In this document: positions 17,291-57,305 of the stretch, piece by piece | How positions within the stretch are numbered: the stretch's first letter is position 1 | Layout of the letters: each line of letters starts with the position of its first letter | NCBI GenBank assembly: GCA_029564935.1 | Contig: JAKQPD010000406.1 | Location: forward strand, 152-64,151 | DNA from: Bacteroidota bacterium | GTDB taxonomy: Bacteria; Bacteroidota; Bacteroidia; Bacteroidales; VadinHA17 | DNA: 64,000 bases | Direction of reading: 5' to 3' | Notes under the pieces: generated by a model | Told to the model about the DNA's origin: nothing | The model's database searches: none | The model's input: the letters and a program-made list of their open reading frames with translations, nothing else | Translations under genes and position numbers: made by a program

Positions 17291-17302
17291 AATACCACAG
17301 TG

Positions 17303-22316: not shown

Positions 22317-22543
22317 TCCGTATCGTTAATGGCGTCTTCCATCTCTTTCAGCAGCTTCATTGTTTCAGAAGCTTCTTCTTCGCTGATCTTCTGAATTGCG
22401 AATCCGGCATGAAGCAGGATGTAGTCTCCGACAGTCACATCTTCGACCATCTGCAGTCCGGCCTTAAAAACCGTTCCGCCGGCAGAAACCTCTGCCATGC
22501 TTCCGTCAATCGAAATTATCCTGGCAGGGATACTCAGGCACAT
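22313..22543 (-). CDS. hypC: [NiFe]-hydrogenase maturation chaperone HypC
   Basis: 76 aa with the N-terminal MCLSIPARI signature. Confidence 0.9.
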   Translation of the reverse strand: MCLSIPARIISIDGSMAEVSAGGTVFKAGLQMVEDVTVGDYILLHAGFAIQKISEEEASETMKLLKEMEDAINDTE

Positions 22544-25457: not shown

Positions 25458-25559
25458 ATTATTTCCTGATTAAACTATTTTTCCGAAATTTAATCAATTA
25501 TTTTAAAAAATAAAAAAGTATTTTATTTAATTGATTATTAACTTATTATCTCTTACAAA

Positions 25560-25625: not shown

Positions 25626-25643
25626 ATGTGAACTTTATCACAT
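25626..25643. promoter_or_regulatory. Candidate Rex (or CRP/FNR-family) operator ATGTGAACTTTATCACAT
   Basis: Perfect TGTGA-N6-TCACA core. Matches 11 of the 14 defined positions of the Rex consensus TTGTGAAnnnnTTCACAA. Ends 3 nt before the first start codon of the operon, in the rex-divergent intergenic region. Confidence 0.5.
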
Positions 25644-25645: not shown

Positions 25646-26647
25646 ATGCGTTATAATAGCATAACAAAGAAAAAATGGGATAAAGTAATTCTTGATTTGC
25701 TTTCATCTCATGATGTCTTTGCCCCTGTCAGCAGTGAGCACGGCCATGATTATAAATATATAGCCGTTTCAGATATTGAGGCAATAGTCTATAACGAACC
25801 GAAACCTGTAACTCCTCTTAAAAATTTCTTCCTGCCTGTGAAAGAAAATGTGACAGGCGAAAGGATTGGTGAAAGACCAAGGATAATCATCGGACCACCG
25901 AATTGTGATGTTGAAGCGCTTGCCCTGCTTGATGAAATTTATCTGGGCAGTGACTTCAATGACATTTTTTACAGGAAGCGTCGTGAGAATACGATCATTA
26001 TTGGTTCTGACTGTATTGGAAAGCAGGAACATTGCCATTGCACTTCCTATGGTATAAGACCATATCCGACAACCATTGCCGATCTTGGCCTGATTATCAT
26101 TGAAGGCATTGTGTATCTAAGGATAATTACACAGAAGGGTGAAGATTTCCTGAATAAAATTGAGTCATCACATGAATGCAAGGAGGAAGAAATTCTCTCT
26201 CTGATCGAAAGGGAACACTCTGCGACTGAGGCTCTGCTGGCAGAAACAAATAAGGGACTTCCGGATTATAAGCGAACGGGAGAGATAGTCAGCCTGGCTG
26301 GAAAAGAGATATGGTTAAAATATTCATCAAAGTGTGTTTCATGCGGTGCATGTGCAACAATTTGTCCCACATGCAGCTGTTTTCTGCTTATTGACAAGCC
26401 CGGTTTTGAAAAGGTAAAACAGCTTGACGCCTGCCAGTATCCTGGTTTTGAAAGGGTAGCCGGAGGTGAAGATTCGCTTTTCCGTCTCCACAACAGGTTC
26501 AGGAACAGATATATGTGCAAATATATCTGGAAACCTCAAAAATTCAGACCGGTCGCCTGTACCGGTTGTGGAAGATGCATCGATGCCTGTATAGGCAAGA
26601 TAAATAAAAATGAATTGTTTATGGAACTTGCCCGGACAGCTTTATGA
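25646..26647 (+). CDS. AsrA / sulfhydrogenase-beta-like Fe-S protein
   Basis: 333 aa. Contains PVTPLKNFFLP, CVSCGACATICPTCSCF and CTGCGRCIDAC. Confidence 0.75.
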   Translation: MRYNSITKKKWDKVILDLLSSHDVFAPVSSEHGHDYKYIAVSDIEAIVYNEPKPVTPLKNFFLPVKENVTGERIGERPRIIIGPPNCDVEALALLDEIYLGSDFNDIFYRKRRENTIIIGSDCIGKQEHCHCTSYGIRPYPTTIADLGLIIIEGIVYLRIITQKGEDFLNKIESSHECKEEEILSLIEREHSATEALLAETNKGLPDYKRTGEIVSLAGKEIWLKYSSKCVSCGACATICPTCSCFLLIDKPGFEKVKQLDACQYPGFERVAGGEDSLFRLHNRFRNRYMCKYIWKPQKFRPVACTGCGRCIDACIGKINKNELFMELARTAL

Positions 26648-27468
26648 GCGGCCAAAGAAATATTTACAAGCCATTAAAGGCCAGACTGACTGAAGTGATT
26701 GAAGAATCGCCTCTGATAAAAACATTTGTCCTTATTCCTGAGGAAGATTTCAGTTTCAGTACCGGGCAGTTCATTGAATTATCTGTTGATGGTATCGGGG
26801 AAGCGCCTTTCACTCCTTCATCATCGCCTTTGATACATGACCGGCTTGAGGTAACTGTAATGAAAACCGGATATGTTACGGAGATCATGCACAATCTTAT
26901 TCCGGGTGTTTTTATGGGTATAAGAGGTCCGTATGGCAGGGGTTATCCTGTTGAAAGGTTCTTCGGGAAAGAGGTTCTGATACTTGGAGGCGGTTGCGGC
27001 CTTGCTCCTATCAGATCACTGCTCTATGCCCTGGAACATGTTAAGGACAATCTTGAGAAGGTAATCCTTTGCTACGGTTCCAAAACACCGGCAGACTGTA
27101 TTTATAAACCTCTGTTTAACAGGCTGAACAGCATTGATAAATTTGAAGCCTACAGGACAGTTGATAAAGGAGACGAAGAGTGGGACGGACCTGTCGGGGT
27201 TGCCCCTACCCTTCTGAATAATGTCAGTGTCAACGTCACTAATTCTGTAGCTGTTGTCTGCGGTCCGCCTGTAATGATGAAATACGGAACCCTTAAGATC
27301 CTTGAAATGGGCTATAAAGACGAACAAATTTACCTTTCAATGGAAAAAAACATGTCCTGCGGACTCGGGAAATGCGGCCACTGTATGATGGGTGAGTTCT
27401 TTGTCTGCAAAGACGGTCCCGTATTCACTTACAATGAAATTAAAGATCAACCAAATATATGGGACTGA
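26644..27468 (+). CDS. AsrB / sulfhydrogenase-gamma / PyrK-like FAD-NAD(P)-binding [2Fe-2S] oxidoreductase
   Basis: 274 aa. Contains GQFIEL...APFTPSS (flavin), LILGGGCGLAPIRS (NAD(P)) and a C-terminal CGLGKCGHCMMG...VCKDGPVF cluster. Confidence 0.8.
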   Translation: MSGQRNIYKPLKARLTEVIEESPLIKTFVLIPEEDFSFSTGQFIELSVDGIGEAPFTPSSSPLIHDRLEVTVMKTGYVTEIMHNLIPGVFMGIRGPYGRGYPVERFFGKEVLILGGGCGLAPIRSLLYALEHVKDNLEKVILCYGSKTPADCIYKPLFNRLNSIDKFEAYRTVDKGDEEWDGPVGVAPTLLNNVSVNVTNSVAVVCGPPVMMKYGTLKILEMGYKDEQIYLSMEKNMSCGLGKCGHCMMGEFFVCKDGPVFTYNEIKDQPNIWD

Positions 27469-27469
27469 T

Positions 27470-27967
27470 ATGCCTAAGAACCTTGTAATAGATATGATCA
27501 GGCTACGGGAGGCAATGTCCGGTAATTCTGACCTTACACTCCCTGAAGGATTATTCTGCCAGTCCCCAAATTCAAACGGTCTGAAAACAATTAGGGAACT
27601 GGCGACCTTCATGTTCACCTGCAGAAAATGTGAAGATGCTCCCTGTATTGCTGTCTGTCCGACTGAAGCACTTGAAAAGGACAGTGATGGAGTTGTTACA
27701 CGCCGTACCAACCTTTGCGTTTCATGTAAGTCGTGTGTTACAATATGTCCTTTCGGAACCATGATGACAGATTTCTTTGTTCATCACCGTAACCGGGAAC
27801 TGTTTTACAACCTTGGTGATGAGGATGAGGTGAAAAAATTCATTGACGCCTGTCCTGCCGGAACAGCTTATTTGACTGACGACGGTGAATCGCCTGAAAA
27901 GAATATTTACCGGCTCAACGAAAAAGTTCTTATAAGAGAGTATCTCTATAAAACTGAAATAAAATAA
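27470..27967 (+). CDS. HycB-like 4Fe-4S ferredoxin subunit
   Basis: CRKCEDAPCIAVCPTEAL and CVSCKSCVTICPFG. The ATG at 27470 lies directly after the preceding stop. The ORF-track start at 27392 overlaps the previous gene. Confidence 0.75.
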   Translation: MPKNLVIDMIRLREAMSGNSDLTLPEGLFCQSPNSNGLKTIRELATFMFTCRKCEDAPCIAVCPTEALEKDSDGVVTRRTNLCVSCKSCVTICPFGTMMTDFFVHHRNRELFYNLGDEDEVKKFIDACPAGTAYLTDDGESPEKNIYRLNEKVLIREYLYKTEIK

Positions 27968-27968
27968 T

Positions 27969-28901
27969 ATGGCAGTCAATTTCTTTTATTTCTTTATTTT
28001 CCCGGGACTGCTTTTCACCGCGGTTACAGGAGCATTTCTGTCATGGTTCGACAGGAAGATCACTGCCAGGGTTCAGTTCCGCAAGGGACCTCCTCTGCTG
28101 CAACCGTTTTATGATTTTTTCAAACTTTTACTTGTTAAGGAAACTATTCTCCCGAAACACGGATCTCCTGTCCTGTTTCTGCTGGCTCCTGTTTTCGGGG
28201 TTATCGGAGCTGTACTGGCAGGTATTTTCATCCTGTTGCCTCTGTTTGACATAACCACGGGATTCAAAGGAGATCTCCTGGTCATCTTTTACCTGCTTAC
28301 AATCCCGTCGTTTTCTTACATAACAGGTTCTCTGGCTTCCGGAAATCCGCTAGCTGCTATCGGGGGATCGAGGGAAATGAAGCTCATTATGAGTTACGAG
28401 CTTACATTCCTGCTCTTTATTGCAGGAATAATCATGAAATGTGATCAGCAGTTCGACCTGTATAATATCATTCACGCACAACAGACAGGGTCACCTTTTA
28501 TTGCAAGCATATCCGGGGTGCTTCTTTTTATTGTTGGTGTATTCTGTATCCAGGCAAAACTGGCATTGGTCCCCTTTGATATGCCTGAAGCAGAAGCAGA
28601 GATAACAGAAGGTATATTCATTGAATATTCAGGCCCGGCATATGCGCTGATAAAACTCACAAAATATATTATGATCTTCATCCTTCCGGCACTTCTTGTT
28701 GCAGTACTGATGAACGGATTCAGGCTCGAAGGGATAAATATTTTGTGGGCAGTGCTTAAAATACTGCTGGTTGTTCTGATATTAACACTGATAAGGAATA
28801 CAAATCCAAGGATTAAGATAAAGCAGGCTATCGGCTTCTTCATGATCTGGATGAATCTGATAGCTGTTATTGCACTGGTTTTGATTTCGTTTGGCTATTA
28901 A
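27969..28901 (+). CDS. NuoH/HycD/MbhM-like membrane subunit
   Basis: 310 aa, polytopic. N-terminal DRKITARVQFRKGPP motif. Confidence 0.85.
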   Translation: MAVNFFYFFIFPGLLFTAVTGAFLSWFDRKITARVQFRKGPPLLQPFYDFFKLLLVKETILPKHGSPVLFLLAPVFGVIGAVLAGIFILLPLFDITTGFKGDLLVIFYLLTIPSFSYITGSLASGNPLAAIGGSREMKLIMSYELTFLLFIAGIIMKCDQQFDLYNIIHAQQTGSPFIASISGVLLFIVGVFCIQAKLALVPFDMPEAEAEITEGIFIEYSGPAYALIKLTKYIMIFILPALLVAVLMNGFRLEGINILWAVLKILLVVLILTLIRNTNPRIKIKQAIGFFMIWMNLIAVIALVLISFGY

Positions 28902-29322
28902 AATTAAGAAAGTGGGATTTAAGAATTATTGCTTTAAAAAATCACTGTGGGTCTTTCATTTCGGAGGGGCCTCCTGCAATAATTGCGATATTGAGATACT
29001 TGATTGTCTCACGCCGAGGTATGATCTTGAACGTTTCGGGATCCTTCTGGTCGGAAGCATAAGACATGCTGATGTACTTCTTGTTAACGGATCAATTAAT
29101 AAGCGCGATAAAGACAGGTTGATTGAAATATATAATCAGGCGCCCAAACCAATACTGGTGGTAGCAATAGGGGCATGCGGCTGCACAGGCGGGATATTTG
29201 CCGAAGGGATTACGTTTGCCGGACCGGTTGACAGGATTATCCCTGTTGATGCTTATATACCAGGGTGTCCGCCAAAGCCGGAAGCGATAATTGCCGGGAT
29301 AGTGAAACTGGCGGGGAGATAG
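28891..29322 (+). CDS. NuoB/HycG/MbhJ-like [NiFe]-hydrogenase small subunit
   Basis: GGASCNNCDIE, GACGCTGGIF and IPGCPPKPEAI. Confidence 0.9.
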   Translation: MAIKIKKVGFKNYCFKKSLWVFHFGGASCNNCDIEILDCLTPRYDLERFGILLVGSIRHADVLLVNGSINKRDKDRLIEIYNQAPKPILVVAIGACGCTGGIFAEGITFAGPVDRIIPVDAYIPGCPPKPEAIIAGIVKLAGR

Positions 29323-29354
29323 TGAGGTGTGAGGGGTGAGTTTAAAATAACTGG

Positions 29355-29807
29355 TTGGAACGATATACAATGGAAACGGATCTGGTAATAGAAAAATTAA
29401 AGAAGAGCTTCGATACTGAGGTACTTAAAGTGACAAAGAAGAGCGAGAGGCGGGCAACGGTATCAGTGAAACCGGAATCCATTGTCAGAATCGCTGAGTA
29501 TCTGTACAAGACTGCAGGATTAAGGTTCATAATAGCTTCAGCCCTTCATACAAAAAGAGGATTTGAGATCAATTATCACTTCAGTCTTGATTCAACAGGA
29601 CTTGTCCTTAACATTCATGTGATAATTAACAGGGAAAATCCTCAGATAGAGTCTCTTTCAAATTTATTCAATGCATCAAACTGGATCGAGAGGGAGATTC
29701 ATGAATTATTTGGAATTGACTTTCTGAATCATCCCAACCAGGAAAAGCTTATATCTGAAGGTAACTGGGCTGAAGGTGTTTATCCTTACAGGAAAGAGTT
29801 TAAATAA
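29355..29807 (+). CDS. NuoC/MbhK-like subunit
   Basis: 150 aa. NWIEREIHELFGIDFLNHPN motif. Confidence 0.85.
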   Translation: MERYTMETDLVIEKLKKSFDTEVLKVTKKSERRATVSVKPESIVRIAEYLYKTAGLRFIIASALHTKRGFEINYHFSLDSTGLVLNIHVIINRENPQIESLSNLFNASNWIEREIHELFGIDFLNHPNQEKLISEGNWAEGVYPYRKEFK

Positions 29808-29818
29808 GAACTGGCAAA

Positions 29819-31015
29819 ATGGGTACAAAAACGCTCATACCGATTGGTCCCTATCATCCTCTGCAGGAAGAACCTGAGCTGTTCAAGCTATTCTGCGACG
29901 GTGAGATCGTAAAGGATATAAAGTGGGAAACGGGATATAATCACAGGGGGATTGAGAAGCTCAGTGAATCAAAAACCTATGATCAGGTCTTCTTCCTTGT
30001 CGAGCGGATTTGCGGGATATGTTCCACCTCTCATCCCTTTGCTTTTGCCAATGCTGTTGAGGAGATTGCCGGTATTGATATAACTGACAGGACCAGATAT
30101 ATTAGGTCCATAATCGGTGAACTTGAAAGGATCCATAGTCATCTCCTGTGGGTTGGTCTGGCAGGTCATTTCCTGGGATATAATACTGTTTTCATGTGGG
30201 CCTGGAAGTACCGTGAGCCCATTCTCGATCTGTTTGAGATGATAACCGGTAACAGGAACAGTTATGCAATGTTCAAGGTCGGAGGTGTGCGCCGGGATAT
30301 TGAAAACAATAAAATTTCCACAATAAGAAAAACCCTTTCCGATGTAAAGAAGAAAACAGATCTGCTCACAGGTGCAGTGATGGATGATCCCGTTATACAT
30401 GCCAGGACAAAGGGAGTCGGTGTACTTACCAGACAGGACATTAGTGACTTTGGCGCTGTAGGTCCGACTGCAAGGGCTTCCGGTGTTTCTATAGATATAA
30501 GAAGAGATGATCCTTATGCTGCATATCCGCTTGTCAGCTGGAAGGTGATCACAGCGGAAGAGGGTGATGTTTTTGCAAAAGTGAAGGTAAGATTACTGGA
30601 GATGTATGAATCCATCTCAATTATTGAACAATGTCTTGGCGGACTTGAAAAAACCCCGGAGGGAGATATTGCAGTTAAGGTGAATGAGATACCTGAAGGT
30701 TCCGGGACAGGCCGCGCAGAGGCTCCCAGAGGGGAAGTCTTTCATTTTGTGGTTTCTGACGGCTCTAATTCTCCGGTAAGGCACAAGATCAGAGCTCCAA
30801 GCTATGTCAATATTGCAACCTTTAAGAAATCCTGTATCGGTCAGACTATTTCAGATGCAACTATCTCACTGGCAGCGGTCGATCCTTGTTACTGCTGCAC
30901 GGAACGAATGGCCGTGGCCCTCGACATTAATTCCGGAAGGAAATTGATGAACGCGAAAGAGCTTATAGAACTATCACTTAAAAGAACAATTGAGCTGAAG
31001 AAAAAAATAACATAG
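29819..31015 (+). CDS. Group-4 [NiFe]-hydrogenase large subunit (MbhL/HycE/EchE/NuoD-like)
   Basis: N-terminal RICGICSTSH and C-terminal DPCYCCTER Ni-Fe ligand motifs are intact. A tail of about 32 aa follows the CxxC-xx-R, consistent with proteolytic maturation. Confidence 0.92.
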   Translation: MGTKTLIPIGPYHPLQEEPELFKLFCDGEIVKDIKWETGYNHRGIEKLSESKTYDQVFFLVERICGICSTSHPFAFANAVEEIAGIDITDRTRYIRSIIGELERIHSHLLWVGLAGHFLGYNTVFMWAWKYREPILDLFEMITGNRNSYAMFKVGGVRRDIENNKISTIRKTLSDVKKKTDLLTGAVMDDPVIHARTKGVGVLTRQDISDFGAVGPTARASGVSIDIRRDDPYAAYPLVSWKVITAEEGDVFAKVKVRLLEMYESISIIEQCLGGLEKTPEGDIAVKVNEIPEGSGTGRAEAPRGEVFHFVVSDGSNSPVRHKIRAPSYVNIATFKKSCIGQTISDATISLAAVDPCYCCTERMAVALDINSGRKLMNAKELIELSLKRTIELKKKIT

Positions 31016-31017
31016 AA

Positions 31018-32916
31018 ATGAGCGGATTATTCTCAATAGTATCAAATCCTTCAGTTTGTAAATTCCTTCAACTTCTGATATTGCTTCCTTTTCTTGCAGG
31101 TATTGTTCTGTTTCTGGTACCGGAAAAGTATCTGAAAGCTAAAGGTTACTTTGCACTGCTGATCAGCCTTATTACCGGTTACTTAACAATTCCCTTTTTC
31201 ACATCGGCGGCTCAGATTGTTACTCTTGAGGGGATTATGGACAGGACCTGCAATGTGCTTCTGGGTTCGGATCTGACAGACGGTGCAGAAAGCTTCTTTA
31301 CATTCTCGGTCGACAACCTGAGCAAGCTTATCATCCTGTTTATAAGCCTTTTTTCGATACTAATACTTATTTATTCAATAATATATATAAAGAAAGGAAG
31401 GGCAAAGCATTACTATCAATGGTTCCTGATCACACTCGGATGTTCATATGGTGCAGTTCTGGCAGATAATCTTATAATGTTTCTTATCTTCTGGGGTATT
31501 CTTGGCATTACCCTTTATAAGCTTATCCCGGGCAGGGATGAAGATAGTTCGGCCACTGCAAAGAAAACTCTTATACTCATCGGAGGCTCGGATTCAATAA
31601 TGATCATTGGTATTGCCATGGTTTACAGGCTGACGGGATCTTTCAGCATTGATTCCGTATCTCTTACCACGGACAACATCCTTTCTGTGACAGCCTTTAT
31701 TGCTCTGCTTATCGGATGTTTCACAAAAGCAGGCGCCTTCCCCTTCCATACATGGGTACCCGATTATGCAAAAGATGCTCCGGCATCCTCTTCAGCAATC
31801 CTGCCGGCTTCTCTTGATAAACTTCTTGGGATCTATTTCCTTGCCAGAATTACGACGGATATTTTCATAATGAATGATGCTATGAGACTCGTCCTGCTGA
31901 TCACCGGATCAATCTCAATAATTGCTGCTGTGATGATGGCCCTTGTACAACACAATTACAAGCGTCTGCTGGGCTTTCATGCAGTATCGCAGGTAGGTTA
32001 TATGATCCTTGGTTTTGGTCTTGGTTCGATGATCGGAGTTGCCGCCGGCTTGTTCCATATGATAAATAATGCCCTTTATAAAAGCGGCCTTTTCCTTACA
32101 GCCGGAAATGTAGAATACAGGACGGGAGAGGTGAATATTGACGACCTTGGAGGTCTGTCGACGAAAATGCCCGTAACATTTATAACGGCAATGATATTTG
32201 CGGTATCTATTTCGGGCGTCCCTCCATTCAACGGATTTGCTTCAAAATGGATGATATATCAGGGGATAATCGAGTCAGGAGCACAGGAAGGAATTGCAGC
32301 AAAACTATGGGTACTATGGCTTGGACTTGCTGTGCTTGGGTCTGCGCTGACCCTTGCGAGCTTTATCAAATTCATCGGGGGCATTTTCCTTGGCCGCCGG
32401 AAAGAATCACTTGAAAATGTCCGCGAAGTACCAGTCCTGATGTGGCTGCCTTCAGCCATTCTGGCTCTATTTTGTACCGCATTCGGGATCTTCGCAACAA
32501 ATCTTGTCGTGAAAGGACTTTTCATGCCTGTAACCGGAGAATTTCAATTCGCAGGATTCTGGGATTCCTCATTTGTTTCACTTCTTGTAATAATATCATT
32601 AGTATTCGGACTGATATTCTATCTTATACTGAACTATAGGAATTTCAGGAGAGAAGACAGTTTTATAGGGGGTGAAAGAATTCAGGATCATACTGCTTAT
32701 CCGGCACATGAATTCTACAAAACGTTGTCGGAGTTTGGGTTTATTTCGGGTATTTATAAAAGAGCCGAAGAGAAATGGTTTGACATTTATGATCTGTCAA
32801 AAAGGTTTGTACTCCGGCTGAGCCACATTTTCAGCGAGGCACACACGGGAGTTCTGCCGGGTTATATAATCTGGGTCTGTGCCGGACTGATAATCATGCT
32901 GATAATCATGATATAA
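31018..32916 (+). CDS. MrpA/NuoL-like antiporter subunit
   Basis: 632 aa, polytopic. FPFHTWVPDYAKDAPASSSAIL motif. Confidence 0.85.
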   Translation: MSGLFSIVSNPSVCKFLQLLILLPFLAGIVLFLVPEKYLKAKGYFALLISLITGYLTIPFFTSAAQIVTLEGIMDRTCNVLLGSDLTDGAESFFTFSVDNLSKLIILFISLFSILILIYSIIYIKKGRAKHYYQWFLITLGCSYGAVLADNLIMFLIFWGILGITLYKLIPGRDEDSSATAKKTLILIGGSDSIMIIGIAMVYRLTGSFSIDSVSLTTDNILSVTAFIALLIGCFTKAGAFPFHTWVPDYAKDAPASSSAILPASLDKLLGIYFLARITTDIFIMNDAMRLVLLITGSISIIAAVMMALVQHNYKRLLGFHAVSQVGYMILGFGLGSMIGVAAGLFHMINNALYKSGLFLTAGNVEYRTGEVNIDDLGGLSTKMPVTFITAMIFAVSISGVPPFNGFASKWMIYQGIIESGAQEGIAAKLWVLWLGLAVLGSALTLASFIKFIGGIFLGRRKESLENVREVPVLMWLPSAILALFCTAFGIFATNLVVKGLFMPVTGEFQFAGFWDSSFVSLLVIISLVFGLIFYLILNYRNFRREDSFIGGERIQDHTAYPAHEFYKTLSEFGFISGIYKRAEEKWFDIYDLSKRFVLRLSHIFSEAHTGVLPGYIIWVCAGLIIMLIIMI

Positions 32917-32930
32917 ATTACATAATCCAG

Positions 32931-33458
32931 ATGGAAATTGCAATATCCGTAATAACAGGACTAATGATTGTGGGGGCATTATTTGCAATCCATGCAAAGG
33001 ATCTTCTTTCAGCAGTAATTGCATGCGGGATAGTGGGTTATGGCCTTGTAATATGTTTCCTGCTGTTAAAGGCTCCGGATCTGGCAATTGTTCAGATAGT
33101 AGTTGAAACGATTTCATTGATAATAATGGTTGCAGTGGTGCTTGACAGTTCGAGGGAAGAGCTCTATTCCAAACCCGACACGCAGAGTTATGTAAATGCT
33201 GTAACTGCAATATTCGTTGTAATTGTTTTGTTCTGGTTTTTCAGGGCTGCAGCAAACGTCCTGAGCCCGTTTGGTGATAGCACTCTGAGGATGGCTGAAC
33301 CGTATATTGAGGGGGCGATGTCAAAAACGGGCAGTGCCAATCTCGTTACAGGGGTGGTCTTTGATTTCAGGGGATATGATACACTGGGCGAAGCTACGGT
33401 GCTGGTAACAGCGGTGCTGGGGGTATTGACGATTTTGAGGGTGAAGGGGAGGAAGTGA
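32931..33458 (+). CDS. MrpA C-terminal / MbhE-like (DUF4040-type) membrane subunit
   Basis: 175 aa. VVFDFRGYDTLGEATVL motif. Confidence 0.75.
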   Translation: MEIAISVITGLMIVGALFAIHAKDLLSAVIACGIVGYGLVICFLLLKAPDLAIVQIVVETISLIIMVAVVLDSSREELYSKPDTQSYVNAVTAIFVVIVLFWFFRAAANVLSPFGDSTLRMAEPYIEGAMSKTGSANLVTGVVFDFRGYDTLGEATVLVTAVLGVLTILRVKGRK

Positions 33459-33479
33459 GGCATTGGAGTAATTCGATAA

Positions 33480-33526
33480 GGATTGCTTCGTCGTCCCGCC
33501 TTATGCGGGACTCCTCACAATGACGG
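33480..33526. repeat. REP-like palindromic element, copy 1 (short form)
   Basis: GGATTGCTTCGTCGTCCCGC-cttat-GCGGGACTCCTCACAATGACGG. It is the reverse complement of the arms of the element at 63146-63220, with one arm mismatch. Confidence 0.9.
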
Positions 33527-33536
33527 TAACTAAAGA

Positions 33537-33989
33537 TTGATCTATGAGAGTATGAAAGGGATGACAGTAATAGTAAAGAAAACGACGCAGCTGATTGCAG
33601 GGCTTGTATTTCTTTATGGTATTTATGTGATCGTCCATGGTCACCTTACACCGGGAGGCGGATTTGCCGGAGGAGTAATCATTGCAGGATCATTTATCCT
33701 CCTCATTCTTGCCTTCGGAAGCGATTTCATGAAATTGACAAAGGAGGAATCGGGATCGACACTTTATGAGAACCTTGCCATTCTCATTGTGGCATTCCTG
33801 GCATGTTCCGGATTAATTTTCGGTACAGGGATATTTTTCCTGAACTGGTTACCTAAAGGAACAGCCGGTGAACTGATAAGCGCAGGGATCATTCCCCTGT
33901 ATAATATTTTTGTCGGTATAGAAGTTGCCGCATCCATACTTACTATTTTTCTTGCACTAATAATTTTCAAGGAGGAGATGCCCGAATGA
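33537..33989 (+). CDS. MrpB/MbhF-like antiporter subunit
   Basis: GHLTPGGGFAGGVIIAG motif. Alternative ATG start at 33552. Confidence 0.85.
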   Translation: MIYESMKGMTVIVKKTTQLIAGLVFLYGIYVIVHGHLTPGGGFAGGVIIAGSFILLILAFGSDFMKLTKEESGSTLYENLAILIVAFLACSGLIFGTGIFFLNWLPKGTAGELISAGIIPLYNIFVGIEVAASILTIFLALIIFKEEMPE

Positions 33990-34324
33990 TACCATACCTG
34001 ATGTGTTTTGGATTGTTCCTTACAGGCCTGTATGGCATAATTACAAGAAGAAACCTTGTGAAAATAGCCATTTCGCTTTCCGTTATGGAATTCAGTACCT
34101 TCCTTTTCCTGGCGCTGATCGGATATATTGAAGGCGGAACAGCGCCGATTGTTGATCCTGCCGATCCGGTAAAAGTATATGTAGATCCCTTACCCCAGGC
34201 GCTTGTTCTGACCGCCATTGTGATCGGACTTGCCACAACGGCAATGATAATGGCCGTTATCATAAGGATCTACAGAAAATACGGAACATTTGATATAAGA
34301 GAGATTAAAAACCTCAAAGGATAG
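33986..34324 (+). CDS. MrpC/NuoK-like antiporter subunit
   Basis: 112 aa with 3 TM helices. GLYGIITRRNLVKIAISLSVME motif. Confidence 0.85.
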   Translation: MIPYLMCFGLFLTGLYGIITRRNLVKIAISLSVMEFSTFLFLALIGYIEGGTAPIVDPADPVKVYVDPLPQALVLTAIVIGLATTAMIMAVIIRIYRKYGTFDIREIKNLKG

Positions 34325-34327
34325 ATT

Positions 34328-35866
34328 ATGAATCCGCTGATCCCTTTATTTGTAATAATACCCCTGGCCGGAGCCTTCCTTATAATGATTATTGGCAGGT
34401 TCATCAGGGATTTCGATAAGTATTTTGCCACACTAGTACTTCTTTTTCTGGCTGTGGTCAGCTTCTGGTTTCTTTTCTCTACAGGTGAGAAGGTTACAGT
34501 ATATAAAGCAGGCGGCTGGGAGCCTGTCAACGGTGTCCCTGTCGGTATTTACATGGTCCTCGACGGATTCAATACCCTGGTTTTGTGTATAATAAATCTT
34601 ATCGGATTCCTTTCGGTCTTTTATTCAATATCCTATATGAACAGATATACCTCCGGAAATTATTTCTACTCACTTTTCTGCCTCATGGTAGCAGGAATGA
34701 ACGGAGTAGTAATAAGCGGAGATATCTTTAACATTTTCGTATTTCTTGAGATATCGGCAATCTCATCTTATGCGCTTGTTGCATTCGGGGTTGAAAAGAA
34801 TGAACTTGAAGCGACTTTTAAATACCAGGTTCTGGGTGGTATCGCATCGTTTATGATACTTTTCGGAATAGGATTCATCTACTGGAAAGCCAAAACCCTT
34901 AACATTGCCGATATCCGTATTGTGTTCAGTACAGGATATGACAGGACATACTATCTTTTTGTGCAGATCCTCCTTTTAGCCGGATTTGGTCTGAAGGCAG
35001 CAATAATGCCTTTCCACGCATGGCTTCCCGATGCGCATTCATCAGCACCTTCCCCGATTTCTGCGATGCTTTCGGGGGTTCTGATCAAGGCTGTCGGAAT
35101 ATATGTGATTATCAGGTTGTTTTTTAACATGTTCGCCATCAGTCAGGCCATGTCTGTACTTATCACATCACTTGGTGCACTGTCGATGCTGATCGGTGTC
35201 TTGCTGGCCATAGGGCAATGGGATATCAAACGGCTGCTTGCATACCACAGCATCAGTCAGATGGGATATGTTGTCCTTTCTGTCGGGATCGGGATGATGC
35301 TGATTTCAAAGGGAATGAGAAACGAAATTGCCGCACTTGCAATAGCAGGCGGAATATTTCACCTGATAAACCATGCTGCATTTAAAGGGTTGCTATTCCT
35401 CAATGCCGGGGCAATAGAATATGCTGCAGGGACTCGTGATCTTCATGAGATGGGTGGTCTGGCCAGGCAGATGCCGGCTACTGCTGCCACATCCTTTACC
35501 GCATCAATGGCAATTTCCGGCATACCACCCTTTAACGGATTCTTCAGTAAGCTCATAATAATCGTTGCAGCTGTGATGGCAAGATATTACCTACTTGCAG
35601 TACTTGCCGTGATAGTCAGCATTATTACGCTGGCGTCATTTCTTAAATTTCAGCGCTATGCATTTTTTAATAAATCTGAAGGCCCGAACACAGGAAAAAT
35701 CAGGGAAGTTCCTTTCCCGATGGTGTTCAGCATGATAATATTAAGCATTATCTGCTTGCTTCTCAGTCTGCTGGTATTGCCCGGCATTAGGGAAACAATT
35801 CTTACACCGGCAACGGATATACTTATGGATCCGTCAAAATATCCATCTCAAATAACTGGCATATGA
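34328..35866 (+). CDS. MrpD/NuoM/N-like antiporter subunit
   Basis: 512 aa, polytopic. MPFHAWLPDAHSSAPSPISAMLSG motif. Confidence 0.88.
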   Translation: MNPLIPLFVIIPLAGAFLIMIIGRFIRDFDKYFATLVLLFLAVVSFWFLFSTGEKVTVYKAGGWEPVNGVPVGIYMVLDGFNTLVLCIINLIGFLSVFYSISYMNRYTSGNYFYSLFCLMVAGMNGVVISGDIFNIFVFLEISAISSYALVAFGVEKNELEATFKYQVLGGIASFMILFGIGFIYWKAKTLNIADIRIVFSTGYDRTYYLFVQILLLAGFGLKAAIMPFHAWLPDAHSSAPSPISAMLSGVLIKAVGIYVIIRLFFNMFAISQAMSVLITSLGALSMLIGVLLAIGQWDIKRLLAYHSISQMGYVVLSVGIGMMLISKGMRNEIAALAIAGGIFHLINHAAFKGLLFLNAGAIEYAAGTRDLHEMGGLARQMPATAATSFTASMAISGIPPFNGFFSKLIIIVAAVMARYYLLAVLAVIVSIITLASFLKFQRYAFFNKSEGPNTGKIREVPFPMVFSMIILSIICLLLSLLVLPGIRETILTPATDILMDPSKYPSQITGI

Positions 35867-36351
35867 GGAGATATATAGCTGTATTCATATTATCACTGAT
35901 ATTCTGGTTACTGCTAACCTTCAGGATCACTGTCCCCAATATCATTACCGGTTCGGTGGCTTCAGCACTTACCTCCGCAATTTTCGCCAGGTATTATTTC
36001 AATAATGTCTATAAGTATCTTCAGCCCGCCAGGTGGTTCTGGTTTCTGATTTATCTTATTGTTTTCCTGTGGGCATGCATAAAAGCTAATTTCGATGTAG
36101 CTTACAGGGTTCTTCATCCCGCAATGCCGATCAAACCCGGTATAGTAAAAGTTAGAACAACTCTCAGATCGGAATTTGCAAAAACCATTCTTGCCAATTC
36201 CATAACAATGACACCGGGAACAATCACAGTCGATATTATTGAGAATGATTTCTATATCCACTGGATTTATGTAAGTTCCGATGATCCCGAGGTTTATACT
36301 AAGAAAATCACCGGGAATTTTGAAAAATACATTAAAAGATTTGCAGAATGA
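35863..36351 (+). CDS. MrpE-like subunit
   Basis: 162 aa. NFDVAYRVLHPAMPIKPGIVKV motif. Confidence 0.8.
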   Translation: MRRYIAVFILSLIFWLLLTFRITVPNIITGSVASALTSAIFARYYFNNVYKYLQPARWFWFLIYLIVFLWACIKANFDVAYRVLHPAMPIKPGIVKVRTTLRSEFAKTILANSITMTPGTITVDIIENDFYIHWIYVSSDDPEVYTKKITGNFEKYIKRFAE

Positions 36352-36614
36352 ATGAATTACTTAACATACTGCTCTATATCCAGATCGGTCTGAGTGCGGC
36401 CTGTCTTTACAGGATCATCAGGGGACCCACAATTCCCGACAGGATGGTAGGCATAGATATCTTTGGCATACTGGTTGTCGGCATCTGTGCAATAATCTCA
36501 ATCCAAACCGAAAGATCATTCATCCTTGACATCGGTATTGCCTGGATAATTTTAAGCTTCACGGGAACCCTGACACTTGCAAAATATCTGAGCGGGAAAA
36601 AATTAAACGAGTAA
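36348..36614 (+). CDS. MrpF-like subunit
   Basis: 88 aa. YRIIRGPTIPDRMVGIDI motif. Confidence 0.8.
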   Translation: MNELLNILLYIQIGLSAACLYRIIRGPTIPDRMVGIDIFGILVVGICAIISIQTERSFILDIGIAWIILSFTGTLTLAKYLSGKKLNE

Positions 36615-36615
36615 T

Positions 36616-36933
36616 ATGGCTACAATAATATTTATTTGTATAGGTGTGTTGTTCAATACTTTCGGATGCATAGGGCTGATCCGTCTGCCGGATGTCTATA
36701 ACAGGCTGCAATCGGCCACCAAATGTGTCACACTTGGCTGCTGCAGTATGCTCACCGGGGTGATAATCCATTTCGGGGTAAGTGATGCAGGCGCCAAAGC
36801 GCTGATAGCCATACCGATCCTGTTTTTCAGCTCAACAGTGGCCGCTCATGCCCTTATCAGAGGTTCATATCATTTCGGGACCAGGTTATCTGACAAGACA
36901 GTGAAGGATGATTATAAGGAGGCGGTAAAATGA
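36616..36933 (+). CDS. MrpG-like subunit
   Basis: 105 aa. GLIRLPDVYNRLQSATKCVTLG motif. Confidence 0.85.
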   Translation: MATIIFICIGVLFNTFGCIGLIRLPDVYNRLQSATKCVTLGCCSMLTGVIIHFGVSDAGAKALIAIPILFFSSTVAAHALIRGSYHFGTRLSDKTVKDDYKEAVK

Positions 36934-37550
36934 AATATCCAAAGCTCAGAGAATTAAAAGAAGCCGTAATCTCACTGGTAACGCCGGCATACACTTCAAA
37001 ATTCCCGGCTGAGCCTCATGTTCCGTTTGAGAGATTCCGCGGAAAACCTGTTGTCGATGACCGGAACTGTGTCGGTTGCGAGACCTGTGCCAACGTTTGC
37101 CCTCCCCATGCAATTACTTTTAAGGATGATAAAATAAAGAAGATCAGGACCATCACCCGCGATTACGGGAAATGTATATTCTGTGGGATGTGCCAGGAGC
37201 ACTGCATTACAGGTAAGGGAGTTGCTTTATCAGACAAGATATTTGACATAGCTGCATTCGACAGGAAAACTATAATTGAATACCAGGAAAAAGAGTTGCT
37301 TATCTGTGAAAACTGCGGAGCAATCATTACAACGGCAGAACATCTTTATTACATGCACAGGAAACTTGGCCCCAAAGCGTTTTCATCAATCCTTAATCTT
37401 AATATGCTGAACCGGAACCTGAAGCTTGCCGAAGGACAGGATGTTGATGTGGAAATAAAGGACGGACTTAAAAGAAAAGACATGTTTAATATAATTTGTC
37501 CCAACTGCCTGCGCCAGGTCCTTGTAAAATACTTATATAAAGGTGTTTAA
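36930..37550 (+). CDS. NuoI/HycF/MbhN-like 2x[4Fe-4S] subunit
   Basis: CVGCETCANVCPPHAI and CIFCGMCQEHC. An additional CENCG...CPNC pair lies in a C-terminal extension. Confidence 0.85.
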   Translation: MKYPKLRELKEAVISLVTPAYTSKFPAEPHVPFERFRGKPVVDDRNCVGCETCANVCPPHAITFKDDKIKKIRTITRDYGKCIFCGMCQEHCITGKGVALSDKIFDIAAFDRKTIIEYQEKELLICENCGAIITTAEHLYYMHRKLGPKAFSSILNLNMLNRNLKLAEGQDVDVEIKDGLKRKDMFNIICPNCLRQVLVKYLYKGV

Positions 37551-38010
37551 AGAACTCGATAAGATCCTGGAAAATAAGCACGGAAAGATACTTTTTGCAG
37601 GTATCGGGAATGTCCTGAAAAGCGATGACGGAGCCGGAGTATATGTTAGCAACAGGATAATCAGTAATGACAACATCCTTGCTCTTACTGTTGAAACGGG
37701 AATAGAGAATTATATCGGAAAAATAAACTCGCTGAATCCCGATATTCTTGTGTTGATTGATTGTGCGGACATGAACCTTCCTCCGGGAAGTTTCAGCCTA
37801 CTGGATACTAATCACATACAGGACTTAACCTTCAATACACATAACATATCGCTCAGCAGACTGACGGATTTTTTTAATATGCCGGTTTATACTCTCGCAA
37901 TTCAACCGGAAAATATTCATTTTGGAGAAAATATTTCGTATATTGTAAAGGAAATTGCAGATAAAATTATTAACCGAATAAACAGACAGGAGGATCAAAA
38001 ATGGCCGTAG
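37543..38010 (+). CDS. hycI: [NiFe]-hydrogenase maturation endopeptidase (HycI/HybD family)
   Basis: FAGIGNVLKSDDGAGVYV and LIDCADM motifs. 155 aa. Confidence 0.85.
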   Translation: MFKELDKILENKHGKILFAGIGNVLKSDDGAGVYVSNRIISNDNILALTVETGIENYIGKINSLNPDILVLIDCADMNLPPGSFSLLDTNHIQDLTFNTHNISLSRLTDFFNMPVYTLAIQPENIHFGENISYIVKEIADKIINRINRQEDQKWP

Positions 38011-38420
38011 AATATCTTTGTAAAGTTTGCAGAGGTCATCTCAATGTAAAGACCTCTATTATCCTTACTGCTACCAACCTTGCTGATCGTTCACAGAAGG
38101 GATTGGTTTATCTGAATCCCGAGATCGGGAACTACACTCATACCACCCACCCTACATTCAGTATAAAAGAGGGAGAGGAATACATCTTCACCTGTCCAAT
38201 TTGCGGAGCACAGCTGAACAGCATGAAGTATCTTCACCTTGTCAGGATTCTGATGAAGGATGATGAAGGCAAGGAATTCAATATTTACTTTTCAGGGATC
38301 GGGGGTGAGAAGTGCACATACAAGATCCGGGGTAACAAGATTGAAGCCCGCACAGGACCTGACGTAAAAGCATACGACAAGTATTTCGAAGTTCCCGACG
38401 AGGACAGAAAATATCTGTAG
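38001..38420 (+). CDS. Unknown Zn-ribbon protein, last gene of the hydrogenase operon
   Basis: 139 aa. Two CxxC pairs (CKVCRGH, CPICGAQ). The start overlaps the protease gene by 10 nt. Confidence 0.6.
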   Translation: MAVEYLCKVCRGHLNVKTSIILTATNLADRSQKGLVYLNPEIGNYTHTTHPTFSIKEGEEYIFTCPICGAQLNSMKYLHLVRILMKDDEGKEFNIYFSGIGGEKCTYKIRGNKIEARTGPDVKAYDKYFEVPDEDRKYL

Positions 38421-38544: not shown

Positions 38545-40587
38545 ATGAATATTGATATCAATAAACTTGCAGCCGACAATATCAGGATCCTTTCAATGGC
38601 GATGGTAGAGAAGGCCAGATCGGGGCATCCCGGAGGTGCCATGGGAGGAGCGGATTTCATTCATATCCTTTTCTCTGAATTCCTGAGTTTTGATCCTGGT
38701 GATCCTTCATGGATAAACCGCGACAGGTTTTTCCTTGATCCGGGACATATGTCTCCAATGCTCTATTCTGTTCTTACCCTTACGGGCCATTTCAATGCTG
38801 AAGAGCTTAAGCAATTCCGTCAATGGGGAAGTCCCACCCCGGGGCATCCCGAACTCGATATTATGAGAGGTGTGGAGAACACATCAGGTCCTTTAGGGCA
38901 GGGACACACGATGGCGGTGGGTGCTGCAATAGCTGAAAGATTCCTTGTTGCAAGGTTCGGTGATCTTTTTTCACATAAGACATTTGCATTCATTTCCGAC
39001 GGAGGTGTCCAGGAAGAAATATCCCAGGGAGCCGGAAGGCTTGCAGGTCATCTTGGGCTCAGCAATCTGATAATGTTTTATGATTCAAATGATATTCAGC
39101 TTTCAACTGAAACAAAATCTGTAACATCGGAAGATACGGCAAAGAAGTATTCATCATGGGGCTGGGAAGTAATTACTATTGACGGTAATGACCAGAACCA
39201 GATCAGAAAGGCTCTTGGTGAGGCTGTAAAATCAAAGGACAAGCCTGTAATTATTATTGGAAAAACTGTAATGGGTAAAGGACTTGTCGATAATGAGGGC
39301 AATAGTTTTGAAAGGAAAACATCCACACATGGGATGCCTGTCAGTGAAGCCGGAGGTTCCTTTGAAAAATCACTTGTAAATCTCGGAGGCGATATGACAT
39401 ATCCTTTCAGAGTATTCCCCGGGGTAAGAGAACATTACGATAAAGTTCTTGAAGGAAAGCGTAAAGCTGCTTCAGAATGGAAGAAGAAAAAAGCTGAATG
39501 GGCAGCCATAAACAGTGAATCTGACCAAAAGCTTCAGATGTTCTATTCAGGCAATATTCCTGAAATAGATTTCCGGGCTATCCAGCAGAAGGAAGGATCA
39601 GCTACCAGGGCAGCATCAGCTGCCGTACTTGGAGTACTGGCAAAGAAAGTCGAAAATATGATCGTCGCTTCAGCCGATCTTTCAAACTCTGATAAAACAG
39701 ACGGATTCCTTAAGAATACAAAACCGTTTACAAGGGGTGATTTTTCCGGAGCATTTCTTCAGGCAGGGGTTTCAGAGCTTACAATGGCTGCAGTTATGAA
39801 CGGAATGGCTCTTCACGGAGGTATTATCCCTGCATGCGGTACATTCTTTGTCTTCTCCGACTACATGAAACCGGCTGTCCGTCTTGCTTGTCTGATGGAA
39901 CTGCCTGTACGATATATCTGGACACATGATGCGTTCCGTGTAGGTGAGGACGGCCCTACACATCAGCCTGTAGAGCAGGAAGCACAGATAAGGCTCATGG
40001 AACACCTTAAAAACCATCATGGGAAGAACAGCATGCTTGTATTGAGGCCTGCCGATGCAATCGAAACAACCGTCGCCTGGAAACTAGCCCTGGAAAATAC
40101 AAATACACCTACAGCCCTTATTTTATCGCGACAAAATATTAAGGATCTCCCTTCAGCCTCAGGTAACAGATATAATGATGCCCTGAAATCAGAATCCGGG
40201 GCGTATATTGTTTCCGACTGCGAGGGGAAACCTGATATTATTCTGGTTGCAAGCGGATCTGAAGTATCAACACTTGCCGAAGGAGCTGTTCTGCTGAAAA
40301 ATGACGGACTTAAAATAAGGATCATTTCTGCTCCGTCTGAAGGATTATTCAGGGGACAGAATGATGATTACAGAAAATCGGTAATACCGGATGACATTCC
40401 GGTATTCGGACTTACAGCAGGATTATCAGTCACACTTCAGGGTCTGGTTGGTGCCGGAGGTAAAATATGGGGCGTGAATACATTCGGATATTCCGCACCT
40501 TATAAAGTGCTGGACGAAAAGCTCGGATTTACAGGAGAGAATGTTTACCGTCAGGTTAAGGATTACCTGGCTCAATATAAAAAGTAA
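38545..40587 (+). CDS. tkt: Transketolase
   Basis: RSGHPGGAMGGADF, GPLGQGH and ISDGGVQEEIS (in place of the usual GDG-type TPP-binding motif). 680 aa. Confidence 0.95.
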   Translation: MNIDINKLAADNIRILSMAMVEKARSGHPGGAMGGADFIHILFSEFLSFDPGDPSWINRDRFFLDPGHMSPMLYSVLTLTGHFNAEELKQFRQWGSPTPGHPELDIMRGVENTSGPLGQGHTMAVGAAIAERFLVARFGDLFSHKTFAFISDGGVQEEISQGAGRLAGHLGLSNLIMFYDSNDIQLSTETKSVTSEDTAKKYSSWGWEVITIDGNDQNQIRKALGEAVKSKDKPVIIIGKTVMGKGLVDNEGNSFERKTSTHGMPVSEAGGSFEKSLVNLGGDMTYPFRVFPGVREHYDKVLEGKRKAASEWKKKKAEWAAINSESDQKLQMFYSGNIPEIDFRAIQQKEGSATRAASAAVLGVLAKKVENMIVASADLSNSDKTDGFLKNTKPFTRGDFSGAFLQAGVSELTMAAVMNGMALHGGIIPACGTFFVFSDYMKPAVRLACLMELPVRYIWTHDAFRVGEDGPTHQPVEQEAQIRLMEHLKNHHGKNSMLVLRPADAIETTVAWKLALENTNTPTALILSRQNIKDLPSASGNRYNDALKSESGAYIVSDCEGKPDIILVASGSEVSTLAEGAVLLKNDGLKIRIISAPSEGLFRGQNDDYRKSVIPDDIPVFGLTAGLSVTLQGLVGAGGKIWGVNTFGYSAPYKVLDEKLGFTGENVYRQVKDYLAQYKK

Positions 40588-57298: not shown

Positions 57299-57305
57299 AA
57301 GTGAA

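Follow-up and report, generated by a model that had tools for sequence, protein, structure and literature searches.

What supplies the electrons to a [NiFe] hydrogenase whose operon opens with genes for an AsrA/AsrB-like Fe-S and flavin/NAD(P) protein pair and runs on into a set of Mrp antiporter genes? The question is raised by 18 genes at positions 25646-38420 of a 64,000-nucleotide (nt) stretch of the Bacteroidota bacterium assembly GCA_029564935.1 (contig JAKQPD010000406.1, positions 152 to 64,151 of the forward strand). This stretch is called the window here, and positions refer to it unless another locus is named. Judged by sequence and gene order, the locus is a Bacteroidales member of the described Hun family (genes hunA-P), and its architecture is not new. 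New are the conservation counts for the NAD(P) site, the rex/hyp neighborhood with its conserved operators and their recurrence in other phyla, and the scale of the family in Bacteroidales. On balance, and with slightly more confidence than doubt, we read the complex as a Rex-derepressed, ion-coupled NAD(P)H:H+ oxidoreductase that would vent reductant as H2. More tentatively, and with our confidence falling a little short of even, we propose that Hun represents a new functional class, an ion-gradient-coupled NAD(P)H:H+ oxidoreductase that would be switched by Rex on NADH build-up.

Large Subunit and Gene Order Place the Locus in the Hun Family

Related gene clusters have been reported before. 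In Saganbacteria RX5A, Matheus Carnevali et al. (2019) found a group-4 hydrogenase, in their word “enigmatic”, alongside genes for Mrp subunits and for a molybdopterin protein and alongside cooF, asrA and asrB, and Meheust et al. (2020) described an Elusimicrobia “Mbh-Mrp-oxidoreductase type”, stating the function of the oxidoreductase as unknown. Glass et al. (2021; bioRxiv 10.1101/536078) named a 16-gene operon hunA-P and its product the Hun supercomplex, with hosts among metagenome-assembled genomes (MAGs) of Atribacteria, Firmicutes, Omnitrophica, Elusimicrobia and Bacteroidetes and among Kosmotoga isolates, with Kosmotoga olearia as one host that they name. In their analysis the large subunit, HunG, falls into HydDB group 4g, yet is distant from other 4g sequences, and is marked by the motif pair CGIC (L1) and CYCC (L2).

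HunG of the window carries the L1 motif RICGICSTSH and the L2 motif DPCYCCTER, and its 35-residue C-terminal tail aligns with the tail of Escherichia coli HycE that HycI cleaves off. The intact [NiFe] motifs and the cleavable tail proposed in the first-pass annotation are thus both present. In a comparison with solved structures of the Protein Data Bank (PDB), MbhL of Pyrococcus furiosus scored best (288 bits) and E. coli HycE next (276 bits), with MbsL and the complex I subunits well below these two. In a search of representative sequences, only P0121 and P0122 emerged as close outgroups (about 60% identity), the rest being at 48% or less. Among the 150 representatives of this library, the CYCC form of the L2 motif was confined to those nearest HunG. 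In a neighbor-joining tree of 83 motif-bearing sequences HunG joined P0122, then P0121 and then P0124, and MbhL and HycE were found in other clades (distance of HunG 0.37 to P0121/P0122 vs 0.60 to MbhL). Tree and identities together rule out HunG as the large subunit of an Mbh (group 4d) or of a formate hydrogenlyase (FHL; group 4a). We assign the locus to Hun because the order hunA-P matches gene for gene, CYCC is present and HunG groups with P0122 and P0121, which share the same synteny. A related Cloacimonadota MAG (locus L138) has been called group 4g (PMC8542988). At present, members of the Hun family are annotated as “NADH-quinone oxidoreductase subunit D” or as Mbh.

Scanning one genome per species confirmed at least 552 relatives of HunG. 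Identical or near-identical sequences come from Bacteroidales MAGs, and the best 80 of the at least 552 relatives (83-90% identity) all belong to Bacteroidales, Rikenellaceae-labelled or Bacteroidota MAGs. Among the matches listed, both the close relatives and the members of the cluster are MAGs throughout, with no cultured Bacteroidales host. When the window proteins were compared by tblastn with the best Bacteroidales loci, the full 18-gene order was recovered wherever the contig was long enough. Since the whole order is kept in every related locus with enough flank, the arrangement is not one of chance. The AsrA/AsrB-like pair (hunAB) lies upstream of the large subunit in all 55 Bacteroidales loci that offer at least 6.5 kb of upstream sequence. 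In at least 12 other phyla the order from the AsrA-like to the NuoI-like gene was found at 88 of 90 loci, namely at 49 of 51 of the P0122 type (Thermotogota (Kosmotogaceae), Ignavibacteriota, Cloacimonadota, Marinimicrobia, KSB1, Calditrichota, Acidobacteriota, Bacillota and Planctomycetota) and at 39 of 39 of the P0121 type (Planctomycetota, Omnitrophota, Elusimicrobia, Spirochaetota and others). Overall, the pair is present at 143 of 145 loci. To the first-pass annotation the combination looked like a modular swap. A unique or local swap is ruled out by these counts: the pair is the rule for the whole clade, and operons of the subgroup, which is described in the literature, routinely include both genes.

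Some operons of the family deviate in composition. In a Planctomycetota subclade a protein of about 540 amino acids (539 aa) is encoded between hunB and hunC (L162, 6292-7911; L164-L166, L168, L173 and L181; weaker in L169-L171 and L178). This protein has no match in Pfam or the PDB. It shows an N-terminal CxxCxxxC..C motif, as in the 4Fe-4S domain of molybdopterin oxidoreductases, and is probably the highly divergent “molybdopterin domain protein” that Glass et al. reported for some Hun operons. Operons lacking hunAB are those of L138 (208-8149; Ca. Celaenobacter antarcticus) and L093 (1-8000). In L138 a CBS-domain protein precedes the HycB-like gene and, earlier still, a second complex-I-like set (NuoL/H/B/C/D-like) ends in a 619-aa fusion of a ferredoxin with a GltD/SudA-type NAD(P)H oxidoreductase. 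At that position, L093 has a histidine kinase and a response regulator.

A Conserved Nucleotide Site in HunB Points to NAD(P)H as Electron Donor

For HunA the best PDB match is the beta subunit of sulfhydrogenase I (SHI) from P. furiosus (9nez_B; E 4.9e-28 over residues 1-319), and HunB matches the gamma subunit over its full length (PDB 9nez_C; E 2.2e-47). Both proteins stay far under the NCBIfam equivalog cut-offs for AsrA, AsrB, ShyB, ShyC, HydB and HydG (118 vs 323 for TIGR02910, AsrA; 192 vs 288.6 for TIGR02911, AsrB), and by their profile scores they are a separate subfamily. Among the 18 operon genes, Pfam and NCBIfam revealed none that resembles AsrC, the siroheme subunit. The description of the first two genes as an AsrA/AsrB (sulfhydrogenase beta/gamma)-type module on a group-4 hydrogenase-Mrp operon is borne out by their domains, by the matches to SHI and by the lack of intergenic space.

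We aligned HunB of the window with 127 orthologs taken from the related loci. The flavin motif GE.PFTPSS, the nucleotide motif GGG.G.AP.R, the CGPP.MMK motif and the four [2Fe-2S] cysteines were invariant in all 128 sequences. This strict conservation across more than 10 phyla argues for a working pyridine-nucleotide site in HunB, and at the sequence level the NAD(P)-binding site assumed for this 274-aa protein stands. Position 147, which follows strand two of the nucleotide domain, is likewise K or R in all 128. NAD-specific PyrK has Glu at the aligned position, and in SHI gamma, which uses NADPH, an Arg is found in this region. The residue at this position hints at NADPH as the nucleotide. 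To our knowledge, the characterized relatives of HunB (SHI gamma, PyrK, AsrB and NfnA) all react with NAD(P)(H). NAD(P)H as the donor is plausible and better supported than the published guess of ferredoxin. The NADP-dependent Fdh3 of Thermococcus onnurineus was considered as a precedent for HunAB and dropped, its NAD(P) subunit being NfnB/SudA-like and not AsrB-like.

Proposed Electron Path and Energetics

The complex would be built from three parts: a hydrogenase module of the FHL/Mbh type (HunD-G and HunP), an Mrp arm (HunH-O) and the HunA/HunB input, connected via HunC. Electrons would pass from NAD(P)H via FAD to the [2Fe-2S] cluster in HunB, then through the [4Fe-4S] clusters of HunA to HunC and HunP, and finally over the proximal cluster of HunE to the [NiFe] site of HunG, where H2 would be released. 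Such a path follows formate hydrogenlyase logic, with an NAD(P)H dehydrogenase (HunAB) taking the place of formate dehydrogenase. Electron flow would be coupled to Na+/H+ movement via the Mrp arm with its two antiporter-like subunits.

The energetics of this reaction were calculated from E0' values of -320 mV (NAD(P)H) and -414 mV (H2). H2 formation from NADH comes out uphill by about 18 kJ per 2 e- at standard conditions and is exergonic only below about 60 Pa H2. For an NADPH pool at about -370 mV and 10 Pa H2, the calculation gives about -14 kJ per 2 e-, similar to the 12 kJ/mol quoted for Mbh (PMC8165549). If NADH is the donor and H2 stands at ordinary pressures, H2 formation would have to be powered by the ion gradient; a reduced NADPH pool, or very low H2, could leave a little energy to be conserved.

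Candidate Rex Operators Precede hunA

Rex, the NADH/NAD+-sensing repressor, is encoded next to hunA in divergent orientation (Table 1), and this arrangement is found in 53 of the 55 Bacteroidales loci. The spacer between both genes measures 188 nt and contains two palindromes that resemble the Rex operator consensus TTGTGAA-N4-TTCACAA (PMC2883068, PMC13077300). Palindrome 1 occurs in 59 of 59 Bacteroidales spacers and palindrome 2 at the matching position in about 50 of these 59. In an alignment of 58 spacers the two palindromes are the most conserved blocks. The background rate of Rex-box-like matches is about 0.1-0.15 per kb.

A link to Rex recurs outside the Bacteroidales. In 18 of the 39 P0121-type loci rex is co-directional and lies immediately upstream of hunA, with a box TTGTGAATGTGAACACAA upstream of rex. 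As far as the gene arrangement tells, the co-directional gene is a second, independent way of linking Rex to Hun. Rex as the first gene of the hun operon, together with this box, was seen in Planctomycetota (Sedimentisphaerales/Phycisphaerae) and Omnitrophota (loci L172, L174, L176, L180, L182-L184, L186-L191, L194, L195, L199, L200, L203 and L208). Furthermore, Rex boxes with 0-1 mismatch are located 43-62 nt upstream of hunA without an adjacent rex in L156, L206, L210, L211 and L240.

According to this model Rex would repress hun and be released at high NADH/NAD+, and surplus reductant would then be vented as H2 in fermentation. Since Rex control implies induction at high NADH/NAD+, H2 evolution fits better than H2 uptake. 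We regard rex and its putative operators as independent backing for a pyridine-nucleotide-linked role that is supportive, not decisive.

Alternative Donors and Directions

Several points weigh against an NAD(P)H-driven, Rex-controlled H2 evolution. The Mrp arm with its two pumps seems oversized for the tiny free energy of the reaction from NAD(P)H to H2. Rex senses NADH, yet the invariant K/R in HunB hints at NADPH, and NADH could already be handled by an NADH-linked trimeric [FeFe] hydrogenase that is encoded 8 kb away. Most P0122-type loci of other phyla are without a Rex box (found in 5 of 56), and Rex control therefore appears to be lineage-restricted. Rex boxes also precede ferredoxin/CO-linked group-4 hydrogenases (Ni-CODH/ECH, in which a nickel CO dehydrogenase is paired with an energy-converting hydrogenase; PMC13077300), so that Rex control is no proof of NADH as the substrate. 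The two Cloacimonadota loci L138 and L093 have hunC-P without hunAB, and the core can therefore work with another donor. Finally, the sole published mechanism has ferredoxin feeding HunABC (Glass et al., 10.1101/536078). Our literature search found no later paper using the name Hun and no biochemical, transcript or protein study of the Hun complex.

The strongest competitor, which we consider unlikely and nevertheless worth serious attention, is a ferredoxin-driven respiratory hydrogenase resembling Mbh. Electrons would run from ferredoxin through HunABC or HunP to H2, the Mrp arm would export Na+/H+, and the HunB site would be vestigial, regulatory or a side branch. Besides being the proposal of Glass et al., this alternative agrees with HydDB, which gives the role of group 4g as undetermined and putatively ferredoxin-coupled, and with ferredoxin-dependent MbhL (288 bits) as the closest solved large subunit. 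The hunAB-less variants L138 and L093 and the known Rex-controlled ferredoxin/CO-linked group-4 enzymes are compatible with it as well, and the step from ferredoxin to H2 would yield enough energy for a two-pump arm. A vestigial site, however, would not hold all residues of the FAD, NAD(P) and [2Fe-2S] motifs invariant in 128 orthologs from more than 10 phyla. Mbh does without such a module, hunAB is kept at all but two of the 145 loci, and the characterized HunB relatives known to us are all NAD(P)(H)-reactive.

An energy-conserving H2:NAD(P)+ oxidoreductase, which would pump ions while H2 makes NAD(P)H, is improbable in our estimate. Derepression by high NADH/NAD+, as it appears from Rex, is the opposite of what a producer of NADH needs, the hosts are mainly fermenters of low-H2 habitats, and a HycI-type protease with FHL-like wiring is typical of H2 evolvers. 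Thermodynamics would allow the uptake direction, as NAD(P)+ reduction by H2 becomes exergonic when H2 is high (about 18 kJ per 2 e- at standard conditions by the calculation above), and some hosts, lineages of Omnitrophota and Elusimicrobia, are predicted to be H2-using acetogens. Group-4 enzymes and SHI are also reversible in vitro.

Least probable, and in our view very unlikely, is a redox hub with HunAB as the exit, either as an oxidoreductase that translocates ions and passes electrons from ferredoxin (or H2) to NAD(P)+, a role once suggested for Mbx, or for sulfur/polysulfide reduction, as once proposed for sulfhydrogenase beta/gamma: an archaeal “dehydrogenase-linked MBX” with a SudA-type NADPH module has been hypothesized in the literature, L138 has a SudA-like complex adjoining its hunAB-less operon and the divergent molybdopterin-like insert between hunB and hunC of some operons suggests several entry or exit points, but a working hydrogenase site, unlike in Mbx/Mbs, is shown by the [NiFe] ligands and the cleavable tail together with the gene for HycI and the neighboring hypCDEF, and no sulfur-handling genes are found among the 18 genes of the operon.

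Operon Layout and Transcript Unit

The list of open reading frames (ORFs) of the window contains 18 same-strand ORFs at 25646-38420 with the coordinates first reported for them. Domains were assigned by Pfam and NCBIfam profile matches, and these agree with every assignment, and with the domain order, of the first-pass annotation (Table 1). The genes are tightly packed. The largest intergenic gap is 78 nt (33458 to 33537); the overlaps, initially described as 4-10 nt, are real and range from 4 to 11 nt. The complete Mrp set reported downstream of the large subunit needed a similar correction. All Mrp parts are present, but, judging from the domain matches, the 632-aa “MrpA” covers no more than the N-terminal, NuoL-like portion of MrpA, and the DUF4040 gene provides the C-terminal part.

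Table 1. Operon genes, regulatory elements and hydrogenase-related neighbors of hun in the window.
Feature	Position	Strand	Evidence
hunA (AsrA/sulfhydrogenase-beta-like Fe-S subunit; 333 aa, 17 Cys)	25646-26647	+	Pfam Fer4_22
hunB (AsrB/sulfhydrogenase-gamma/PyrK-like; 274 aa)	26644-27468	+	Pfam FAD_binding_6, NAD_binding_1, DHODB_Fe-S_bind
hunC (HycB/HydN-like ferredoxin; 165 aa from ATG)	27470-27967	+	Pfam Fer4_11; NCBIfam HydN/AegA-type matches
hunD (NuoH/HycD-like membrane anchor)	27969-28901	+	Pfam NADHdh, E 1.3e-63
hunE (NuoB-like hydrogenase small subunit, proximal [4Fe-4S])	28891-29322	+	Pfam Oxidored_q6; NCBIfam NF005012, 136.9 vs cut-off 116
hunF (NuoC-like)	29355-29807	+	Pfam Complex1_30kDa
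hunG (group-4 [NiFe] hydrogenase large subunit; 398 aa)	29819-31015	+	Pfam NiFeSe_Hases and Complex1_49kDa
hunH (MrpA-N/NuoL-like antiporter subunit; 632 aa)	31018-32916	+	Pfam Proton_antipo_M; end-to-end alignment with NuoL and MrpA models
hunI (MbhD+MbhE/MrpA-C-terminal, DUF4040)	32931-33458	+	Pfam MbhD, MbhE; NCBIfam MrpA C-terminal region
hunJ (MrpB/MnhB-like)	33537-33989	+	Pfam MnhB
hunK (MrpC/NuoK-like)	33986-34324	+	Pfam Oxidored_q2
hunL (MrpD-like antiporter subunit; 512 aa)	34328-35866	+	Pfam Proton_antipo_M; NCBIfam PRK08376, 410 bits
hunM (MrpE)	35863-36351	+	Pfam MNHE, E 1.7e-42
hunN (MrpF)	36348-36614	+	Pfam MrpF_PhaF
hunO (MrpG)	36616-36933	+	Pfam PhaG_MnhG_YufB; TIGR01300, 79 vs cut-off 63.1
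hunP (NuoI/HycF-like 2x[4Fe-4S] subunit; 206 aa)	36930-37550	+	NCBIfam PRK12387 “formate hydrogenlyase complex iron-sulfur subunit”, E 4.7e-27
hycI-type large-subunit C-terminal endopeptidase	37543-38010	+	TIGR00072, 74.7 vs cut-off 47.45; TIGR00142 hycI, E 1.4e-24
139-aa Zn-ribbon protein with two CxxC pairs, last operon gene	38001-38420	+	no Pfam family
Perfect 20-nt palindrome GGCCATTCCATGGAATGGCC, right after last operon stop codon	38422-38441	+	read directly in sequence
rex (NADH/NAD+-sensing repressor, divergent from hunA; start codon uncertain)	24774-25457	-	NF003996, 221.7 vs 138; Put_DNA-bind_N and CoA_binding
Candidate Rex operator 1 TTGTGATTTGTTTCACAT, at rex start	25442-25459	.	2 mismatches to consensus
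Candidate Rex operator 2 ATGTGAACTTTATCACAT, ends 2 nt before hunA ATG	25626-25643	.	palindrome near Rex consensus
hypF	22534-24762	-	Pfam HypF domains
hypC	~22313-22543	-	TIGR00074 HypC, 72.7 vs cut-off 48
hypD	21231-22316	-	Pfam HypD
hypE	20227-21234	-	Pfam AIRS
HydA of trimeric [FeFe] hydrogenase	14327-16108	-	NCBIfam “NADH-dependent [FeFe] hydrogenase, group A6”, 891 bits vs cut-off 765
NuoF-like gene of [FeFe] hydrogenase operon	16130-17290	-	
NuoE-like gene of [FeFe] hydrogenase operon	17303-17770	-	
Weak Rex-like box CTGTGAAATTAATAACAA, just upstream of [FeFe] hydrogenase operon	17831-17848		3 mismatches

HunC has at least two [4Fe-4S] motifs by its Cys pattern, and its place in the operon is kept across related loci. 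Its start is most likely the ATG at 27470, 1 base past the hunB stop; the GTG at 27392 chosen by the ORF lister is less apt. Beyond its two [4Fe-4S] motifs HunP has a C-terminal extension with two extra CxxC pairs (C126/C129 and C190/C193), which could form an additional metal site or a docking surface for HunC. The 139-aa protein encoded by the last gene shows 42-93% identity among Bacteroidales hun operons and is absent from hun operons of other phyla. An AlphaFold2 single-sequence model of this protein reached a predicted local distance difference test (pLDDT) score of only 44. It may be a maturation or assembly factor.

Judged by their spacing, hunA-P are very likely co-transcribed. Only 1 nt separates hunB from hunC and again hunC from hunD, and the terminator scan gave no terminator-like element there. 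A transcript boundary between 27468 and 27969, which would have split the operon assumed at the outset, has no room. The palindrome behind the last stop codon is a possible operon terminator; the terminator scan did not call it, its T-run being weak. A strong terminator was predicted after the next downstream gene, encoding transketolase. Sigma-70 promoter and terminator scans were uninformative, since their counts match shuffled expectation. The transketolase gene (38545-40587) lies directly 3' of the operon and occupies the same place in about half of the loci from Bacteroidales. Simple synteny may account for this, or a tie to pentose-phosphate/NADPH metabolism.

The Surrounding Hydrogen-Metabolism Island

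The [NiFe] maturation genes hypF, hypC, hypD and hypE follow downstream of rex on the same strand, in a conserved arrangement. The [FeFe] hydrogenase operon with its box (14327-17848, - strand) is located 8 kb upstream of hunA. Together, the [FeFe] operon, hypEDCF, rex and hun form a hydrogen-metabolism island of roughly 24 kb.

Further away, a heterodisulfide-reductase-like cluster (52975-58019, - strand) encodes a protein of 633 aa that resembles TfrB/HdrD/DsrK, a pyridine-nucleotide-disulfide oxidoreductase, a protein with a CCG domain and one with 2x[4Fe-4S]. The cluster may serve the fermenting host as a further flavin/Fe-S redox module. Unrelated to hun is a 978-aa SNF2-family helicase with similarity to ZorD/DrmD-type defense helicases (11361-14297), whose gene is adjoined by that of a DinB-type polymerase (10199-11272).

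Implications for Fermentative H2 Formation

Disposal of NADH electrons as H2 is a central problem in fermentation and syntrophy, being uphill unless H2 is very low. Two ways around it are known, electron confurcation and a reverse electron transport that runs through separate enzymes. If Hun indeed uses NAD(P)H, it would add a third way within a single complex, a [NiFe] hydrogenase that depends on NAD(P)H and is coupled to Mrp, and would be a membrane alternative to those [FeFe] hydrogenases that confurcate electrons. Hydrogenases would also be tied directly, in function, to complex I, Hun being a living analog of a “complex I with protons as acceptor”. Fermenters of over 550 species of Bacteroidales and of a dozen other phyla would then vent pyridine-nucleotide electrons directly as H2, and ion-motive force would be either spent or slightly gained in venting. 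Members of the family occur very widely in digesters, in sediments and in the subsurface, and MAG studies model Hun as ferredoxin-dependent. With NAD(P)H as the donor, the metabolic reconstructions in those studies would need revising. The link to Rex offers a cheap, testable handle on Hun function.

Comparison With Known Systems

With soluble P. furiosus SHI (group 3b, PDB 9NEZ) Hun shares the beta/gamma half that carries NADP(H), FAD and Fe-S sites and is homologous to HunA/HunB. The hydrogenase half of SHI, in contrast, is a soluble group 3b enzyme, whereas that of Hun belongs to the membrane-bound group 4 with NuoD/NuoB-type subunits. The window pair is also not a member of the AsrABC sulfite reductases, as it stays under the AsrA and AsrB cut-offs and lacks AsrC.

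Formate hydrogenlyases, here E. coli FHL-1 (group 4a, PDB 7Z0S) and the Mrp-linked Fdh2-Mfh2-Mnh2 of T. onnurineus (group 4b), share with Hun the HycB-/HycF-like chain, the HycE-like tail, HycI and the coupling of a low-energy donor to H2 evolution; in group 4b the Mrp module is shared as well. Where these systems have a formate dehydrogenase, the window operon instead has the flavin/NAD(P) protein pair, and Pfam and NCBIfam gave no molybdo- or tungstopterin formate dehydrogenase gene at 25646-38420. P. furiosus Mbh (group 4d, PDB 6CFW) contributes the closest solved large subunit, an Mrp-derived arm and a core with NuoB/C/D/H/I-like subunits. It is a ferredoxin user of 14 subunits (MbhA-N) with one antiporter-like subunit and without HycB-like or AsrAB-like subunits, and its large subunit falls into a clade other than that of HunG and carries CLSC as L2 motif. 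The window operon, with two Proton_antipo_M subunits and HunABC, differs from this composition.

Genome papers on Staphylothermus, Thermosphaera and Caldithrix hold either a conceptual precedent only (SudA-linked MBX) or nothing comparable. Closer are the Saganbacteria and Elusimicrobia types, in which a group-4 hydrogenase is likewise combined with Mrp and an AsrA/AsrB oxidoreductase module. The Saganbacteria cluster has its own molybdopterin oxidoreductase and cooF, which are not in the window locus; the related 539-aa insert occurs only in some Planctomycetota loci. The closest described system is the Hun operon of Glass et al., which shares the same 16 genes in order, an AsrAB-like pair without AsrC, the CGIC/CYCC motifs and the Mrp arm. 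To this set the window locus adds hycI, the lineage-specific Zn-ribbon gene (139 aa) and a divergent rex-hypFCDE with two candidate Rex operators, and whereas Glass et al. have ferredoxin as the donor, the evidence assembled here favors NAD(P)H.

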